From: a virus
Virus record (IMG/VR): IMGVR_UViG_3300043788_000131
Span: 1 to 64,000 of that record
Length of the DNA: 64,000 nucleotides
Reading direction: 5' to 3' (one strand)
A model generated the notes under the pieces. It had not been told where the DNA came from. It did no database searches and was given only the letters and a program-made list of their open reading frames with translations. Of the stretch, positions 1 to 63,208 are shown one piece after another (position 1 is the stretch's first letter; each line of letters begins with the position of its first letter). A program made the position numbers and the translations under genes.

Positions 1-38
1 CTCACCAACGAACGGGACCGCGTCGTCGGACGGAAACT

Positions 39-740: not shown

Positions 741-1749
741 TGCAAAGTGGCGTGCCGCGCTTGCTGAACCGGATCGCCGGAAGTGGCCGTCCGTCGACAT
801 GAACCACCCCGAGGCGGGGTACTACCGAGTCAAGAGAAATGGCCATTGGCAGCCCAGGCGCTACCTTTATGAGGACGGCGAACTCTATTGCTGTGCCGGC
901 GAGCGCGTCCAACCGGGCAAACCTCTTCACGAGGTATGGCTCTCGCTCGAAGATGCCATCGAAAGCTTCTCCTGGGCGTGGAGCAATCCAATCAGCAAAG
1001 AGGCCTATGAGGCTGTCATGGTCGGCGGCCCGTGGCCGGACATCGACCCCGTGGTCGCCGAGCAGATGGCGGGGATAGGCCACAATCAGGCGTCCGACGA
1101 TCCGCTGAAGCAATTCGAGATCGACATCGAGAACGCCGCCGGGGCGGTCGAGACCTACAAGGAAGTCAACGAAGATACCAATGCGGCGGCCCGTTCAGCG
1201 CAGGCGCGGCTGCAAGAACTCGCTCGGGCGGCTGACAACAAGCGCTCCGAGCTCAAGGCGCCATCGCTCGCCACCTGTCAGAAGATTGATAAAGATTGGG
1301 GTGGCTTAGTAAAGAAAGCGAGGGAAGCGGCTGTCGCGCTCGGCAGGGCAATGGGGGTGTGGGAAAGCAAAAAGGCTCGGGCCTTGGAGGCAGCGAGGCG
1401 CGTGGAGGAGGAGACGAGGCGGGCGGAGGAAAGGGCGGCCCAGGCTGAAGCCGACCGCGCGATCGCCGCGGGAATACCGCCGTCCGTCATGGAAGCTCCG
1501 AAGCCCGCACCCGCACCCGCACCGACCACTCCCGCGCCAGCAACCCGGATCAAGGGCGGCTACGGCCGTGCCGGGCATGTGTACGTCGAGAAGGTCATTA
1601 AAGAGGTCACTGACTATGGCGCCCTGGCGACGGCCTACATCAATCACAACGAGGTGCAAGCGCTGATTAAGCGCCTCGCCGCAGTCGACGTGAAGAACGG
1701 CCACACCCCTCCGGGCGTGGTTATCGAGGAAGAAAGGAAAGTTCGATGA
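727..1749 (+). CDS. coiled-coil early protein (recombination-region hypothetical)
   Basis: GGAGG RBS; long ORF, helical; IGHN motif; directly upstream of ERF. Confidence 0.7.
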   Translation: MDDIDAKWRAALAEPDRRKWPSVDMNHPEAGYYRVKRNGHWQPRRYLYEDGELYCCAGERVQPGKPLHEVWLSLEDAIESFSWAWSNPISKEAYEAVMVGGPWPDIDPVVAEQMAGIGHNQASDDPLKQFEIDIENAAGAVETYKEVNEDTNAAARSAQARLQELARAADNKRSELKAPSLATCQKIDKDWGGLVKKAREAAVALGRAMGVWESKKARALEAARRVEEETRRAEERAAQAEADRAIAAGIPPSVMEAPKPAPAPAPTTPAPATRIKGGYGRAGHVYVEKVIKEVTDYGALATAYINHNEVQALIKRLAAVDVKNGHTPPGVVIEEERKVR

Positions 1750-2909
1750 CATCATGGGGAATCCACAACGAAGGCGAGCATACTAACGGCAATGGCACGG
1801 CGGTTGTTGTAGCCGAGCCAACGGCCGTCGCACTGGTGACGCCTTACACCAAGCTCCTGGAAAAGGCGGCGGAGAGCGGCAATCTCTCAATCTTCGAGAA
1901 AGGCATGGAGTTGGAGGAGCGCTGGCACCAAACCCAGGCTCGACGCGACTTCGATGCGGCGATGGCGGCGGCGAAAGCTGAAATGCCTACGATTTCCAAG
2001 AACCAACTGGTTGATTTCGAGGCGAAAAGCGTGGGCGGCAGGAACACAAATTATCGGTATGAGGATTTTGCGGACGTTGTTGAAACGATACAGCCGGTTC
2101 TCTCCAAGCACGGGCTCTATCTACGGCACACCGGCAACAACAACGTCGAAACTGGCATGGTTCACGTGACCTGCATTCTTGGGCACCGGCACGGTTTTCG
2201 TGAATTGACGCCGCTTTCGGCCAAGATCGACCCCAGCGGCAACAAGAACCACGTCCAGGCGATCGGTTCGACCATCACCTATTTGCAGCGCTATTCCGCA
2301 AAGCTGGCTCTTGGTCTTGCAGCGGCAGTCGATGACGATGGGCAAGGGGGCGGCGACGCGCGACGCGGCGGCGGCAACGGCGGCAAAGAGGAGCGCAGAC
2401 CGCCCTCCAAACGGACTATCGAGGCAACGGTCGAAGAGATCGCGCCCTATGTGCCGCGGGCGAGCTTGGGGCCGCCCTACGCGCTTCCCACCAAACTAGA
2501 TGGCAAAGGGCGCGATCCGATCGAGTGGGGTGAGGATTTCAAAGCTACACTCCGTCAAGCGAAGAGCGCGAGCGAGATCGGGGTCTGGCTGCAACTCAAT
2601 CAAAAGGCCATGGGCCAGCTATCCATTGCCTACCCTGATGTTCGCGCGTCGATCGACGAATGCGTCAATGGCCTCATTTCGGGCGGCGAATCAAAAAAGG
2701 CAGAGGCGACCGCGCCCGACGATACCGACTCGGACCAGTGGCGCAAGGACATGATCGGTGCCCTGTCTGGCTGCGAAACTATCGAGCAGGCCAATACCGT
2801 CCATATCGCAATCGACGGCGCCCCAAATGGCATCCTCAAGGAGCACCTTGATGCGGTCGAAGCGGCGTTTAAGCAAACGGTCGATCGGGTGCTCGGCGTC
2901 GGAAAATGA
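1746..2909 (+). CDS. erf: ERF-family ssDNA annealing protein
   Basis: NYRYEDFADVVETIQPVLSKHGL and QAIGSTITYLQRYSAKLALGLA match ERF superfamily motifs. Confidence 0.88.
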   Translation: MTSWGIHNEGEHTNGNGTAVVVAEPTAVALVTPYTKLLEKAAESGNLSIFEKGMELEERWHQTQARRDFDAAMAAAKAEMPTISKNQLVDFEAKSVGGRNTNYRYEDFADVVETIQPVLSKHGLYLRHTGNNNVETGMVHVTCILGHRHGFRELTPLSAKIDPSGNKNHVQAIGSTITYLQRYSAKLALGLAAAVDDDGQGGGDARRGGGNGGKEERRPPSKRTIEATVEEIAPYVPRASLGPPYALPTKLDGKGRDPIEWGEDFKATLRQAKSASEIGVWLQLNQKAMGQLSIAYPDVRASIDECVNGLISGGESKKAEATAPDDTDSDQWRKDMIGALSGCETIEQANTVHIAIDGAPNGILKEHLDAVEAAFKQTVDRVLGVGK

Positions 2910-3450: not shown

Positions 3451-3717
3451 GTGTGGAAAAGCGCACAATTCGGTGGCTATCTGGACTGCCCTTCTTGTGA
3501 GGGCCGCGGTTTTGCGTTTGTTTATAACAATACACTGACCGACCGCCTGAAAGTAAAGTGCATTGCTTGCGATGGGGGGGGCAAGATCGGGGGGGACGCC
3601 TTCCCCGCCTCGGTGCTCGACGCTACGCGGTGGCTAATGAAGTATGCGCCAGAACGATTGCCAGCTTGGTTGGAGCGCCATGAGCCCGGATTGAAAGAGG
3701 CGGCTGAGCGCAAATGA
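3451..3717 (+). CDS. small zinc-finger protein
   Basis: CPSCEGRG...CIACDGGG (DnaJ-like CxxCxGxG pairs). Confidence 0.6.
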   Translation: MWKSAQFGGYLDCPSCEGRGFAFVYNNTLTDRLKVKCIACDGGGKIGGDAFPASVLDATRWLMKYAPERLPAWLERHEPGLKEAAERK

Positions 3718-4181
3718 TCCTCAAGTCACCCCCGAAAGGATGGAAGCGGCCGGTCATCCCGGTCGCCGTCAAGTTACAAGCCATGCTGCGGCGCTATCCG
3801 AATCCTCCAATCACCGTGATCTGTCAGGGGAGCGATAGCGCCAAGATGGTGGCAATGTTCCTCGTGTACGGGAAGCATCACTTCCATCACTCGCCCGGTC
3901 TTTGGCAGCGTGAATTCGATACCGACGCAAACGACACCGATCCGAAGGCAAACAGCGCAGAGCACATCCTCGCGGTGACCGGGTTGGAGCACGACGCAAT
4001 CGAGAACGGCCCCGGCGGCGAGCGGCGGATCACCTCTGCGGGCTCGGCTTCGAACCAGCGCGCCAAGAACAGGCGGCTCAATAAGCCAAAAAAAAGCCGC
4101 GGCCCCAAGTTGCGGAGCCGCGGCTTTGATAAGACCAGATCCCGCCGTTTCGACGGAACAGTAACCAGGAGGAAAAGGTGA
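3714..4181 (+). CDS. degenerate HNH-like protein with basic tail
   Basis: HFHHSPGL...N...EH pattern; basic C-terminus RSRGFDK..RRFDGTV. Confidence 0.5.
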   Translation: MILKSPPKGWKRPVIPVAVKLQAMLRRYPNPPITVICQGSDSAKMVAMFLVYGKHHFHHSPGLWQREFDTDANDTDPKANSAEHILAVTGLEHDAIENGPGGERRITSAGSASNQRAKNRRLNKPKKSRGPKLRSRGFDKTRSRRFDGTVTRRKR

Positions 4182-9993: not shown

Positions 9994-10046
9994 ACTCATG
10001 TCGCCGACGTGAGAGGCCGGTATCCTGACCGCTAGACGACGGGGGC
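9972..10046 (-). tRNA. tRNA-Glu(CTC)
   Basis: loop CT-CTC-AC; CCA. Confidence 0.92.
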
Positions 10047-10199
10047 TTACTCGAATCTTCGCGCCTTCCTTGCTAGTTCGAGGGCGCGCAACAGAGAAAT
10101 GAGAAGCCGCCATTGCCTTTCAACCCGCCGCACGCGGCGCCGTCTTTTCGGCTTTTTCAGCGGCTGCGAGGCGGGTTCTTTTGGCCGGTCGAGGATCAT
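10047..10199 (-). CDS. 50-aa highly basic peptide
   Basis: fills spacer; MILDRPKEPASQPLKKPKRRRRVRR...; no SD. Confidence 0.35.
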   Translation of the reverse strand: MILDRPKEPASQPLKKPKRRRRVRRVERQWRLLISLLRALELARKARRFE

Positions 10200-10209
10200 C
10201 GCGGGGGCT

Positions 10210-10285
10210 TGGCTCCCAGGGCAGGGGTCGAACCTGCAACCGCTCGGTTAACGGCCGAGTGCTCTGCCGGTTGAGCTACCTGGGA
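10210..10285 (-). tRNA. tRNA-Asn(GTT), C33
   Basis: loop CC-GTT-AA; U1-A72, G73; CCA. Confidence 0.92.
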
Positions 10286-20600: not shown

Positions 20601-23600
20601 GTGTGCCGGGGTCTTTGAAGTCGCCGGAGCTTCCAATTCCCAGGTGGTTAAAGCCGCCCTCCAGCAGCCATCGAAGATAGTCGAGGCTTTCGTGCATGTG
20701 CCAGATCGGCATTGCTCGATCGCTTGGCAGGTTCGTTTCGCGAACCAGTCGCGCGTTTTCTTGTTCCGTGCCCCCGATGATGTCGGGAATGACAGCGACC
20801 GCCTGGGGCGATCGGTCGAGAATGCCCTGCGCCCACTTCTCGAAGCCCTCCACGGCCTCGGGGGTGAACGTGCCTTCGCCGCGGCGCCACATCGAGAACG
20901 CGCCGTTGTCGACAAGTAGAATGCCGTCTTTGCCAACCAACCTGATCGCATCGTCAAGCTGTTTGCCGAGTTTGATGCGCGTCCCGTAGGAGACGCAGAA
21001 CGAGCACCCCTTCAACTGTTCAAGCGCGCTAAGAGGATTGAGCGGCAGCCCGAAGACGACATGCTTCTGCATGTCATGCTTGTCGCGGAACAAGTCTTTA
21101 GTGTCGGAGAACCCGACGATGTTTTCCGGGTGAGCAAACGCGAAGTCTAACTGGCGGGTGGCTGGCGGCGCCTGAGCGCGACCATTTCCTCCGCTTGCTC
21201 GATCAGCCACTCGCGGCTCGGGTCTTCCTGCGGGAGCCGGAGCACGTCGTTCAAATGTTGCTCCCACATCGCCAAGGTGCCGGAATACATTTCCGGTGGA
21301 TCTATCATCACCTGGGCGGGGTTGGCTTGCGGCATTGGGGATGCTCCTTCGCAGGGTATCAGCCGCCTGCTTAATATAGGGTTGAAGGCCGAGGTCTTTA
21401 ATCTCGGCCCGGTAGTCGTTCGTGGTGTGGAAGTGCAGGATGCCGGCCTGACGCAGCACTTCGCCGATCAGGACGTGGTGCATCTTGTTGGCAGTGGCGA
21501 TCGGCAGAAGTTTCCGCTCGTGGACCAACTCGGTGAGCAGCGGAAGGATTTGCTTCTGGCCGATAAACGAGGCGATGCGGCCGAGCGACGCTGCATTGTG
21601 CTTGGCGTCGGGCCCCAGAAGCGATCGGCCAAAATCAGTCAGTGCCCCGCGAGTGACATTGCCTCCGTGGCCGTGTGCCCAGATGGACTCGACCCCAGGC
21701 CAGCCGAGCATGCCGATGTCGCCTTCGCTCAGGGCGCCATTGCTTGGGTGGGTGTGGTGAACGGCAAGTCGGTTGTTGGCGTCGGCGAAGGCCTTCAGCA
21801 TATCGTCGTCGAAGGCGACGTTCTTCGCTTGGCCGCGTAGATGCAGGACCGCGTTGCCCTTCTCGTCGATGGCGAGCAAGTGTTCCAGGCCGGTGCTTAT
21901 GCCCTGGCGGAGGAGATAGTCCTGTGCCTGCTGGCCGGCCGGCCGATTGGGGTCGATGTAGAAGGGGCCACGATCCTCGGCGACCATGGGGCCGGCGGGG
22001 GCGGGGCGGGGCGGACTCTTCCACTCGAACGGTGCTTGGTTCGGATCAACGGGGATGTCCCAGCGGTCGCGAAGCATATTGCCGGTGCTGTTAGGGACCC
22101 CTATATTTTCAGTGGAGGGTGTTATGGCTTCTGGGGCATATGTCGGCGACCACGATCTTTCGGTCGTGTACGTGTTCGACACGTCGGACAAATTCTCCGC
22201 AGTTCGCTCTTCCGGGGCCTGGGAGCGGTTTTCGATGACCGTCGGTGAACTCGCGGCGGACTGGACGCCTGTCTCTGATCCTTCCGAAGTAGCAACCTTG
22301 CTCAAGGCCGCACGAACTTCGCTCTCGGAAATGCCGGTGCGCGCCAAGTAGGCGTCCCATGCGCCCTGGTAAAGGTCACGGCTCCGCTGCATGTCAGCGG
22401 CCATGTCCTTCGTTTCCTGCTCACTCAGGTCAGCTTGGTCTCTATTGCGCCACCGCTCAAAGAGCTTGTGGCCCTCCTTCTTGGCCGCCTCCATTTCGCG
22501 AATCGGCAGGTAGTACTCGACTAGCTGCCCATTCGGCATCCGCAGATCGAACACCGCGATGCGGAAGCCCCATTCCTTCGGCTTGAGAACCTTTGCGGTA
22601 TCGCTTTTGATGATGCTCGCGCCGATCGGCGGCAGCCGCGCGGCAATTTCAGGCAATTCCCGGATGTCATTGAGGATCGTCTTGAACCGGAAGCTGTCCC
22701 GAAGGTGCTCGATCCCGTGCCAGGGCTTTTGTTTCAGGATGGATGGCCGCGAGCCCTTTGAGATTATGTTCTCGGGGAGCTTCTCATTCCATTTGGACTC
22801 GGTGCCAAAATCTCGGTCTATCTGGTCAATGAAGTCCTGGACGATCGGCTTGTTCGCCTCGCTCAGCGCTTGCAGTTGGCGCGCCTTCTCTTCTGGCGTC
22901 GCCTTGCGGTCGATCGGGTTTACGATCTGACTTTCTTCGTACTCGGCAGGATGGTCGGTCCGCCGGGCGAGTTCGGCGATCACGCCGCGCAGCTTGTCCC
23001 GCATTTCGGCGAGCTTGCCGGCGTAGGGCGATTGCTGGCCCTGCTGCGCCTCCAGTTCCGGCAGTGCCTTCTCGGCGGCGTCGATGCGCGCCTGCATCCA
23101 GTCGCCGCGGCTCATGGCGACGGAACGGGTGTCCTTGTCGATTTCATGAAGGGCCTTTTCGATTGCGCGCGTGAAGGCGCCAGCGTCGACAAGCAGGTCT
23201 TTCGGGATGTTATGGAGCTCCGAGGCGGAGATTGTTTTGCCGCCGTCCGTGAGTCCAAACACCATCTGAGTGGACTGATCGCCGGACGCGATCTCGGCCT
23301 CCAGATCGGCACCGAGCACACGGCCGAGCTTCAGGTTGCCGTCCGGCGCCTCCATGACTTTCGGGGTGAGCTCCTTGGCGGCCGTCCACCGGCGCGTGAA
23401 AGTCTTGCCCCCGATAGTGGCCTCGAACGGCTCGAAGTCGCCGAAGGCGTTGGCAAAGGCCGTCGTAAGGTCCTTTTGGTTGGTTATGTCTTCGCCGTCG
23501 ACGTTGATCTTGTACTTTGCGTTTTCGTCGCCGCCTTTCTGAGCGTCGATGATGTCTTGCGCTGCCTTGTTGGCTGCCCCCGAAGCCCTGCTACTTTCAT

Positions 23601-61425: not shown

Positions 61426-61841
61426 AGCGCCTCGATCTCGATGACTTCCTCGCCCGCCTGCTGCGTGCCGTTGAGCATCGGGAAGAAGGTCTGATCGTCG
61501 GCGGCGACGGTAAGGACGAGCTCGTTCTTGCGGCGGGCTGCCTTGAACATGTCGCCGGCCCAAACGCGGGCGATGGCGTCTTTCAGTTTCTCGGCCACGA
61601 CTTCGGCGAGCTCATCCGGCGAGCACGGCACCTTAGTTATCGCCGGCTGGTTCGGATCGGGCTGAACAATCCACTTCGCGTCGAACGAAGTCTCGCCCTC
61701 GCGGATCGGCCGCCACAGGTCCTCTTTCTTGACCTTGTAGCCGGCCTCGGTGCAGCCGCCGCGCGAGGCGGTGTAGCAGATGCGGATTTCGTCGCCCTCA
61801 ACCAGGGCCACGGGCTTCACGCGAGCAAAGATGGTTTTCAC
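61422..61841 (-). CDS. hypothetical protein
   Basis: GTGA overlap with glycosyltransferase stop. Confidence 0.65.
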   Translation of the reverse strand: MKTIFARVKPVALVEGDEIRICYTASRGGCTEAGYKVKKEDLWRPIREGETSFDAKWIVQPDPNQPAITKVPCSPDELAEVVAEKLKDAIARVWAGDMFKAARRKNELVLTVAADDQTFFPMLNGTQQAGEEVIEIEAL

Positions 61842-63208
61842 AGGTTTTCCAGCGCGAGTTTCACGTTTGCGATGACGCTGTCCCAATCGCCGAGCGCGGG
61901 CTGACGGAAGACCTTCATCGAGGAGTACCAGATCGTTTCGTTGTCCTCGCGCATCCACGGCCAGTAGCCGTTGAAGCGCACGAGGTTCCAAACAGACTTG
62001 CCGAGCGCGCCGGCGAGGTGCGCGACCGCGGTGTCGACCGTGATGACCAGATCGAGGTTCTTGATGAACTGCGCAGTGTCGTGCAGGTCGTCGATCAACT
62101 CGACAAAGTTGGCGATCGGCATATCGCGCGGGATGTCCGCCTTCGGCACCTGCAGCGAGACGAAGGTGACGCCCTTGATGCCCATGAGTGGGCGGAGCAT
62201 TTCCAGCGGAATCGACTTGGCGCTGGCAGAGGCCTCGGTCTCAGGCTGTAAAGGGCGGCGCCCACTCGACCAGCACAGGCCGACGCGCAAGCGCTCGGGC
62301 AGCGCCGCCAGCCGCTTAGCAAACTCGTCGGGCTGGTCGCCGTATCTCGGCTGCGTCGTAAGATAGGGGAAGGGCCGAATGTCGGCCGGCCCCATGCCAA
62401 GCAGTCGCGGCACGTCGAGCAGCGGGCACGAAAAGTCGATTGCCGCAGGGTCTTTGTACTGGTCGCCGCTGGCAAGGACATCGCTGCTGAATGACGCCTC
62501 GGCAAGCCGCTTTGCGGTTGGCCTCACTTCGAGGATAATGCGGGCGAAGGGGTAGCGCTTCTGGACATCGTCAACGAAACGCAGCGCCATGATCTCATCG
62601 CCGTATCCCTGCTCGGAGAAGAGCAGGATCTGCCTGTCGTCGAGGTCTTGGCCCTCCCAAGGCTTGAAGGTTCGGAACGGGCGAGGCGGGAACGGCGTGT
62701 CGAACCAGCGCCAGTGGTAGTTTTCGAACCCCTCTCTCCAGCGGCCAAGCGCGAGGTAGATCACCCCCAGCTTGACGCGGGCATCCTGGTTATGAGGCTC
62801 GATCTCAAGCGCGGCCTCGAACTCCTTCGCTGCCGCATCAAGCTCCATGGTGTGGGCGAACATCCCCCCACAGAGAATGTGCGGCGTAGCGGTGTTCGCG
62901 AGTTCGAGCGCACGCTGGAACGACAGCCGCGCCGATTCCCACATGCCGTTTTCGGCGAAGGCATAGCCGCGATTCGACCAGACGTCTGGCTGGTCCTCGC
63001 GGATCGAAAGCGAGCGGTCGAAGTAAACCAGGGCGTCGAAGAACCGGCGCTCCTTGAGCAGGCAGATGCCGCGGACATGCCACGCCTCTGCGAGCTCGGG
63101 TTTCACCCGAAGCGCCTGGACGCATAGGTCGCCAGCCCGTTCGAAGGCACCCGCCTTCAACGCGCTGACCGCCAACTCCAGGATCTGGTCCCCCCGCCAT
63201 GTGACCAT
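61838..63208 (-). CDS. TPR-repeat glycosyltransferase (GT9-like)
   Basis: TPRs; EQGYGDEIMALRF; DLVITVDTAVAHLAGALGK; WYSSMKVFRQ..GDW. Confidence 0.92.
   Translation of the reverse strand: MVTWRGDQILELAVSALKAGAFERAGDLCVQALRVKPELAEAWHVRGICLLKERRFFDALVYFDRSLSIREDQPDVWSNRGYAFAENGMWESARLSFQRALELANTATPHILCGGMFAHTMELDAAAKEFEAALEIEPHNQDARVKLGVIYLALGRWREGFENYHWRWFDTPFPPRPFRTFKPWEGQDLDDRQILLFSEQGYGDEIMALRFVDDVQKRYPFARIILEVRPTAKRLAEASFSSDVLASGDQYKDPAAIDFSCPLLDVPRLLGMGPADIRPFPYLTTQPRYGDQPDEFAKRLAALPERLRVGLCWSSGRRPLQPETEASASAKSIPLEMLRPLMGIKGVTFVSLQVPKADIPRDMPIANFVELIDDLHDTAQFIKNLDLVITVDTAVAHLAGALGKSVWNLVRFNGYWPWMREDNETIWYSSMKVFRQPALGDWDSVIANVKLALENL

Follow-up and report, generated by a model that had tools for sequence, protein, structure and literature searches.

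The stretch analysed here is 64,000 nucleotides (nt) of viral DNA, positions 1 to 64,000 of IMG/VR record IMGVR_UViG_3300043788_000131 (hereafter the window). Within it, a small protein, P0002, is encoded on the plus strand inside the minus-strand open reading frame (ORF) of a giant polyvalent protein, P0001, next to and partly opposite a domain of P0001 that resembles toxic small alarmone synthetases (toxSAS). Judged by sequence comparison across related loci, P0002 is a real, conserved gene, with conserved translation and promoter signals. It is probably the cognate partner and immunity protein of the toxSAS-like domain, which it would inhibit by occluding the active site.

A nested gene and its start signals in the window

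The original prediction, made from the letters of the window, described a promoter, a ribosome-binding site and an ORF of 75 codons antisense within an ORF of about 16 kb, and every element is present where it had been placed (Table 1). It also held that the small ORF ends at the C-terminal edge of a RelA/SpoT-like domain and faces a featureless Ser/Thr/Glu linker of the giant protein. Both descriptions are accurate: the last ~22 codons of the P0002 gene overlap the last helix of the Rel-like domain, and the stretch reads as rich in Ser, Thr, Glu and Ala in the giant frame. The third codon positions of the two genes coincide. In the window, the -10 element ends 6 nt 5' of the Shine-Dalgarno (SD) sequence, so the leader would be very short, at ~10 nt.

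Table 1. Features of the nested locus and its carrier gene in the window (aa, amino acids)
Feature	Position	Strand	Basis or detail
-35 element TTGCCG	22079-22084	+	sequence read
-10 element TATATT	22102-22107	+	17-nt spacer after TTGCCG
Sigma-70-like promoter TTGCCG-N17-TATATT	22079-22107	+	equivalents at the same place in 14/33 homologues
Shine-Dalgarno GGAGGG	22114-22119	+	4 nt 5' of ATG
Nested antisense gene P0002, candidate immunity/antitoxin	22124-22351	+	ATG 22124, TAG 22349-22351, 75 aa
S/T/E/A low-complexity linker of giant protein, residues ~3820-3873	22123-22284	-	read-through of the nested gene's complement
RelA/SpoT-like small-alarmone-synthetase (Tas1/toxSAS-like) domain, giant-protein residues ~3603-3819	22285-22935	-	AlphaFold2 (AF2), Foldseek, motifs
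Giant polyvalent-protein ORF P0001, 5368 aa	17635-33741	-	ORF list, translation, Pfam

Chance expectation on the window alone

Taken by itself, the sequence of the window shows a pattern that does not exceed chance, and the case for the gene depends on related loci. The window has a G+C content of ~61%, and the antisense strand of the giant gene holds 64 open stretches of at least 75 codons and 23 ATG-initiated ORFs of at least 75 aa, with the candidate's stretch ranking seventh within its own frame. This antisense frame can be closed only where the sense frame encodes Tyr, His or Gln; the linker contains none of these residues, so its open antisense frame is largely predicted by the sense amino acids. 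Codon resampling left the antisense frame often open given the amino-acid sequence (P 0.2 to 1.0). Promoter-like sites in the giant gene number 3, compared with 2.5 +/- 1.9 in shuffled sequences, which is the chance rate. As a lone query, P0002 retrieved no homologue from 5.8 billion proteins and gave at most a sub-threshold match to DUF6546 in Pfam. All these figures suit a chance shadow ORF of a GC-rich gene, with a fortuitous promoter and ribosome-binding site. We favoured that reading at first on the single-sequence statistics and dropped it after the antisense-frame omega (the ratio of nonsynonymous to synonymous rates) and the aligned translations were in hand. It is contradicted by the selection test, by the census of loci and by a profile built from free-standing copies, all described below, and we now give it almost no credence.

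The small gene accompanies the Rel-like domain in four arrangements

A degenerate motif of the domain retrieved 53 IMG/VR loci, and 59 further loci came from metagenomes scanned with its standalone forms. A search with a small-protein profile then yielded a census of arrangements at 110 loci with the domain. At 70 of these, the small gene lies antisense within a giant ORF that is read through; it follows co-directionally downstream at 13 (after a gap of 18-36 nt, or 269 nt in L061), lies divergently upstream of a Rel protein of ~270 aa at 14 and sits convergently, 21-34 nt beyond the stop of the Rel gene, at 2. A further 9 loci are truncated, and 2 (L080 and L109) have room for a partner, with none detected. 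The partner gene is therefore present, in one of the four arrangements, in 99 of the 101 loci with usable flanks. Two questions raised with the original prediction, whether homologues of the 75-residue protein neighbour standalone small alarmone synthetase (SAS) genes and whether the antisense ORF is conserved where the domain is retained, are thereby answered in the affirmative, the standalone genes having their partner in co-directional, convergent or divergent orientation.

A hidden Markov model (HMM) built only from 21 free-standing copies provided a check that is independent of how the nested ORFs were chosen. It matched a single one of 1204 open stretches in the window, at 22166-22336(+), with an E-value of 1.5e-7. 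Among the 53 IMG/VR loci, the same antisense frame is open across the linker in all that have enough downstream sequence, even at 39-48% G+C. Twelve members of the family had already been called in public data (5.8 billion proteins), as hypothetical proteins of 68-87 aa, and the ESM Atlas held no usable relatives of the small protein; this partner family of the domain carries no annotation. These results support the small-protein family as a near-obligate neighbour of the Rel-like domain. The free-standing homologues, which overlap no gene, also argue directly against a shadow ORF.

Two groups of loci differ in their surroundings. In the co-directional loci L056, L060, L065 and L079, the Rel-like domain forms the C-terminal module of proteins of 690-764 aa, whose N-terminal 450-500 residues are not recognized by Pfam. 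Polymorphic-toxin carriers followed by an immunity gene have a similar layout. P0170 (81 aa), at positions 10004-10246(+) of L054, is an orphan copy of the small protein on the chromosome of a Marivivens sp. metagenome-assembled genome (OZ244120.1). Its complement is still a Ser/Thr-rich linker, no Rel-like domain lies upstream, and a neighbouring stretch translates like a tRNA gene. The copy probably represents what is left of a prophage at an integration site; having no Rel domain, the locus is uninformative on arrangement.

Start signals are conserved among nested homologues

Of 33 non-redundant nested loci, 32 have an SD core (GGAG, GAGG or AGGA) 3-11 nt 5' of the start codon in the alignment, and the ATG start is conserved among the nested homologues. 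Sites of the form TTGnnn-16..18-TAnnnT occupy the promoter position in 14 of 33 nested homologues compared with 0.45 expected, an approximately 30-fold enrichment counted over loci that are related and not independent. Under a strict rule, 7 promoter-like sites were observed and 0.29 expected. The expectation was derived from the remaining same-strand positions of these loci. Examples from homologues include TTGTCA-17-TATAAT, TTGACT-17-TATATT and TTGATA-17-TATATT; the -10 elements of homologues end 6-10 nt 5' of the SD sequence, which implies leaders of ~10-17 nt. The retention of such sites is meaningful because the synonymous sites of these loci are saturated. A fortuitous promoter and ribosome-binding site, as a shadow ORF would have them, are hard to reconcile with this conservation.

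A promoter-like site that is conserved and points into a very long late gene would also suit an element that works at the nucleic-acid level. Antisense transcription would then tune or time the giant late gene through transcriptional interference or antisense RNA, with the peptide being secondary, and convergent transcription would indeed be expected to interfere. The conservation of the ATG and the SD sequence speaks against such an element, as do the free-standing copies of the gene, in which an antisense effect on the toxin gene is impossible. Together with the pattern of constraint and the confident fold reported in the following sections, they make this explanation highly improbable.

The antisense frame is under selection of its own

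Selection was measured in a marine clade of homologues. By the Nei-Gojobori method (NG86), applied to six disjoint pairs, omega in the domain was 0.035 for the sense and 0.165 for the antisense frame. In the linker, the values were 0.152 for sense and 0.105 for antisense, and antisense omega was lower than sense omega in 6/6 pairs. A second test counted transversions at third positions with unchanged neighbouring first and second positions. At sites that are fourfold degenerate in the sense and twofold in the antisense frame, transversions were depleted within the nested ORF (7/83 vs 36/109; odds ratio (OR) 0.19, p 4e-5). The same class of sites showed no constraint in the domain (0.36, OR 1.15, p 0.62), and past the nested ATG the effect was gone (OR 0.71, p 0.77). 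Sites that are fourfold degenerate in both frames carried 0.33 transversions per site in domain and nested ORF alike; as the neutral rate is equal across the regions, recombination or a younger history is not the cause of the depletion. Constraint from the sense frame is weak within the nested ORF (OR 0.47, p 0.04) compared with the domain (OR 0.07, p 1e-13).

In these homologues, the antisense frame is thus under purifying selection that the sense frame does not explain, which is also the outcome of the comparison of both frames across related phages that had been proposed for the window. The aligned antisense translations resemble a globular protein with a conserved Met. Selection specific to the antisense frame is what a shadow ORF lacks. 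It also bears on a nucleic-acid-level element, since the constraint falls on positions that change antisense amino acids, and sites that are fourfold degenerate in both frames evolve at the neutral rate.

Dual coding has left a mark on the protein itself. The wobble-coincident complementary frame has 0 stops in 36/36 nested genes, compared with a mean of 2.4 stops in the free-standing genes (n=14), of which 3/14 are stop-free. Relative to free-standing proteins, nested proteins are poor in Tyr (0.3 vs 2.0%), His (0.1 vs 1.7%) and Gln (0.9 vs 3.4%), the residues whose codons could make opposite-strand stops. They also contain less Lys and more Ala, Ser, Pro and Thr. The nested copies are dual-coding.

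An unrooted Rel-domain tree divides the nested from the free-standing forms at one branch, corresponding to one change (SH-aLRT 88). Nested copies are deeply diverged from one another, so their arrangement has long been kept. The original prediction had proposed that a whole toxin-antitoxin cassette was absorbed in frame into the giant protein. The linkage of the partner and the read-through of its complement are as expected of such a cassette; the direction of the change is a part of the proposal on which the unrooted tree is silent.

The carrier domain is a divergent alarmone-synthetase fold by model and motif

The AF2 model of the domain, built from 16 homologues, has a mean predicted local distance difference test (pLDDT) score of 90.7. 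A Foldseek search of the Protein Data Bank (PDB) with this model gave 55 matches at E <= 0.001; among the matches listed, all are SAS or Rel enzymes, with template-modelling (TM) scores of 0.45-0.65. They include exported SAS, RelQ/RelP, Tas1 and CapRel at E-values of 2e-6 to 5e-5, Tas1 (6ox6_A) being matched at 3.6e-6. Residues K82, R85, R101, D102, R105, G145, R147, E162 and H178 of the domain segment are invariant in the 16 sequences, and the hallmark residues, in giant-protein numbering D3682, G3725-x-R3727, E3742 and H3758, are invariant in the family. The hallmark motifs of RelA/SpoT homologues are thus present: a basic R/K patch, a D-x-x-x-R strand, G-[YW]-R, the strand with the catalytic Glu and the His of the E-H-x-x-Y-K region. 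The invariant columns align to the YwaC motifs HDIAGVR, GYRS and EH..YK, with a weak alignment E-value (0.17). The domain has no match to Pfam family PF04607 (RelA_SpoT) even at E <= 10. Its homologue in L065 passes the PF04607 gathering score (31.6 bits vs a cut-off of 27), and the family is therefore a divergent branch, not a non-member. From its predicted structure and its RelA/SpoT-homologue motifs, the domain has a divergent RelA/SpoT-type synthetase fold, which is Pol-beta-like, and the RelA/SpoT-like assignment made from the letters holds.

An exhaustive HMMER search found 468 clusters (at 50% identity) with the domain in 1.8 G representatives, a lower bound, mostly within very long proteins. 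Used as a single-protein query against viral contigs, the domain found nothing; the standalone form P0161 was likewise unsuccessful in that search, and 0 matches were obtained with a degenerate DNA motif representing the standalone subgroup. PF04607 misses an entire branch of SAS-like domains, including that at 22249-23001(-) of the window, and the number of alarmone-synthetase modules in phage polyvalent proteins is probably underestimated by domain surveys.

The small protein is predicted to cover the active site

The AF2 model of the small protein, from 32 homologues, is of the alpha/beta type and consists of four strands and two helices (pLDDT 79.6, predicted TM score 0.61). Such a confident fold is not expected of a shadow ORF, and it also argues against a peptide that is secondary to antisense transcription. 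In Foldseek, nothing was significant (all E > 1), and the match of highest probability was Tis1 (6ox6_B). In VIA-align, Tis1 came first among the 573 Foldseek candidates and second among 48,161 representative chains, with Z 4.3 and a root-mean-square deviation of 3.1 over 57/76 residues, a score within 1 Z of unrelated chains. These comparisons are no more than suggestive of a Tis1-like fold.

Prediction of a complex between the small protein and the domain, which had been put forward as a check, returned an interface score (ipSAE) of 0.87, with 0.02 for the best of 3 controls. The mark used for this score is reached by 58/80 solved complexes and 2/110 mismatched pairs. Contact agreement between runs was >= 85%, and the pLDDT of the partner was >= 88. 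The predicted interface is formed by residues 85-93 and 184-194 of the domain segment, including the invariant R85, P86, K92, P93, W184 and R185, and identity to the 6OX6 complex is 12-17%. On the small protein, the predicted contacts include residues 36-44. The model thus supports binding of the small protein to invariant active-site residues of the domain; a docking prediction that passes its controls is a further point against a shadow ORF. Tis1-like domains are reported to neutralize (pp)pApp-making toxSAS enzymes by occluding a substrate site (PMC11782079), and the small partners of toxSAS proteins studied to date are neutralizers (PMC11782079, PMC7229694).

Adjacency in four arrangements and predicted binding would fit any obligate partner. 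The small protein might thus be a real partner that is not an inhibitor, for example a chaperone or packaging adaptor, a subunit that activates the enzyme or sets its specificity, or a sensor that lets go of the enzyme in response to a cue; the match to the Tis1 fold is weak, and inhibition itself is read from a model. We consider such a role unlikely. The predicted interface over R85, P86, K92, P93, W184 and R185 suggests occlusion, the known precedents among toxSAS partners neutralize, and a single toxin-immunity complex, 6OX6, supplies the nearest structural counterparts of both proteins. On this structural modelling, an antitoxin or immunity role by active-site occlusion is the most likely, and best-supported, mechanism.

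A proposed model for immunity encoded opposite a toxin-like domain

In the immunity reading, the small protein would be made from its own sigma-70-type promoter and SD sequence, independently of the giant late gene. It would cover the basic and aromatic active-site residues R3665, P3666, K3672, P3673, W3764 and R3765 of the synthetase and, as Tis1 does on Tas1, block substrate binding. In this way a virion protein of the phage could include a toxic nucleotide-pyrophosphokinase domain, and the cell expressing the phage genome would still be protected. The reaction of the domain may be (pp)pApp or ppGpp synthesis or tRNA pyrophosphorylation, with pyrophosphate passing from ATP to a nucleotide or a tRNA 3' end. 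The original prediction had the antitoxin guard a lysogen or producer cell; the lysogen part found no support, with no integrase among the window ORFs scanned, and it is more economical to assume protection of the cell that produces the phage or is newly infected.

Several observations weigh against this immunity reading, in addition to the chance figures of the window given above. The leader implied by the spacing of the -10 element and the SD sequence in the window is only ~10 nt, and a sigma-70-like site is recognizable in only ~40% of the nested homologues. The selection test concerns the marine clade and not the lineage of the window, whose nearest relative is 60% identical in the domain. 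L080 and L109 are the sole loci with the domain and enough flank but no detected partner, which may be lost, replaced or too diverged there. The resemblance to Tis1 is weak and tied with that to unrelated chains, and a profile of the small protein searched against PDB sequences did not find Tis1, there being no sequence similarity. The complex score expresses the confidence of a model, and as a like complex, 6OX6, has been solved, part of it could be memory. Finally, a toxin made late in the lytic cycle might not strictly require neutralizing.

A bolder possibility, which we regard as doubtful, is that nested antisense immunity acts as a timer. The toxin domain would enter with the ejected polyvalent protein and briefly halt host metabolism or translation, blunting defences. 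On the phage genome as it enters, host RNA polymerase would then transcribe the immunity gene, which has its own promoter, and the immunity protein would turn the toxin off, so that phage development goes on. Late in infection, the immunity protein would shield the producer cell.

The giant gene and its surroundings

P0001 matches the Pfam families InPase (PF18823), ddrB-ParB (PF18763) and SNF2-type helicase (PF00176), and its gene sits in a virion and lysis module, with an endolysin gene on one side and DNA-ejection and structural genes on the other. P0001 is a polyvalent protein of the phage type, in which many unrelated conflict domains are joined in one giant phage polypeptide. RelA/SpoT domains are already known from phage polyvalent proteins (Iyer, Burroughs, Anand, de Souza, Aravind 2017, PMC5512222). 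After the linker, at window ~21800-21900(-) and giant residues ~3950-3965, the protein carries a JAMM/JAB-like metal motif, H-x-H-x6-S-x2-D (HHTHPSNGALSEGD). This JAB-like region has no Pfam match and is common to other giant proteins (P0003, P0022-P0024).

An ERF-family single-strand annealing protein is encoded at the left end of the window (1746-2909(+)), and a tetratricopeptide-repeat protein with a weak glycosyltransferase-9 match at its right end (61838-63208(-)). Most large ORFs of the window belong to no Pfam or PHROG family, and a blastn search with 3 kb of the window found no match among GenBank phages.

Relation to known systems and significance

The closest known counterpart is Tas1-Tis1, the (p)ppApp synthetase and immunity pair of the Pseudomonas aeruginosa type VI secretion system (6OX6). 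Like Tas1-Tis1, the pair described here joins a divergent RelA/SpoT-like domain to a partner of ~76 aa; the window domain resembles 6ox6_A and, weakly, the small protein 6ox6_B, and the partner is predicted on the active-site face. Unlike in Tas1-Tis1, the two systems having no detectable sequence similarity, the carrier is a phage polyvalent protein, presumably of the virion, instead of a type VI effector, and the immunity gene lies antisense inside the toxin ORF instead of co-directionally downstream. Immunity genes of pore-forming colicins are transcribed against the toxin gene from their own promoter, which uncouples immunity from toxin induction. They lie between genes and share no codons with the toxin gene, whereas ~75 codons are read on both strands here.

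In toxSAS modules, an SAS-fold toxin is neutralized by an adjacently encoded, small structured protein, as in FaRel/AT2faRel with a Tis1-like domain and in FaRel2, PhRel2 and CapRel with pZFD antitoxins (PMC7229694, PMC11782079). The present pair shares the SAS fold and the small adjacent partner, and its free-standing relatives (L056-L096) have the classical two-gene layout. It differs in that the window domain falls outside Pfam RelA_SpoT, the partner family is unannotated, and the pair is dual-coded on opposite strands within a giant ORF in 70 loci. P0001 shares with the polyvalent proteins of PMC5512222 its giant size, its phage origin and a multidomain make-up, here of ddrB-ParB, InPase, helicase and RelA/SpoT-type domains. 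A nested neutralizing partner is not described in that work, whose text has no mention of 'immunity protein', 'overlapping' or 'antisense'.

Searches of the literature for immunity genes nested in, or antisense to, polyvalent-protein genes gave no relevant result. To our knowledge, no nested antisense toxin-immunity cassette has been reported. As far as we found, the parts are of known kinds (a domain of toxSAS type, a partner weakly resembling Tis1 and a polyvalent protein) and the architecture is new: an immunity gene fully nested antisense in the toxin-bearing ORF, with ~75 codons dual-coded and a promoter of its own, in at least 70 diverged phage loci.

In bacteria and phages, antisense overlaps between protein-coding genes are contested, and few are well supported. 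The nested gene belongs to this rare class, with free-standing homologues, frame-specific selection, start signals and a predicted function across at least 70 deeply diverged phage loci. It also points to an annotation gap, in that gene callers and domain searches systematically miss such nested genes. For the toxSAS field, a further family pair without annotation is put forward: a Rel-like domain that Pfam RelA_SpoT does not capture and its candidate partner, with a possible Tis1-like fold. For the phage, the arrangement suggests how a potentially self-toxic enzyme can be carried in a virion polyprotein, a question that the 2017 survey of polyvalent proteins did not address. In a broader and equally doubtful form of the timer idea, the featureless 'linkers' of polyvalent proteins may harbour antisense or alternative-frame partner genes for their toxic domains.

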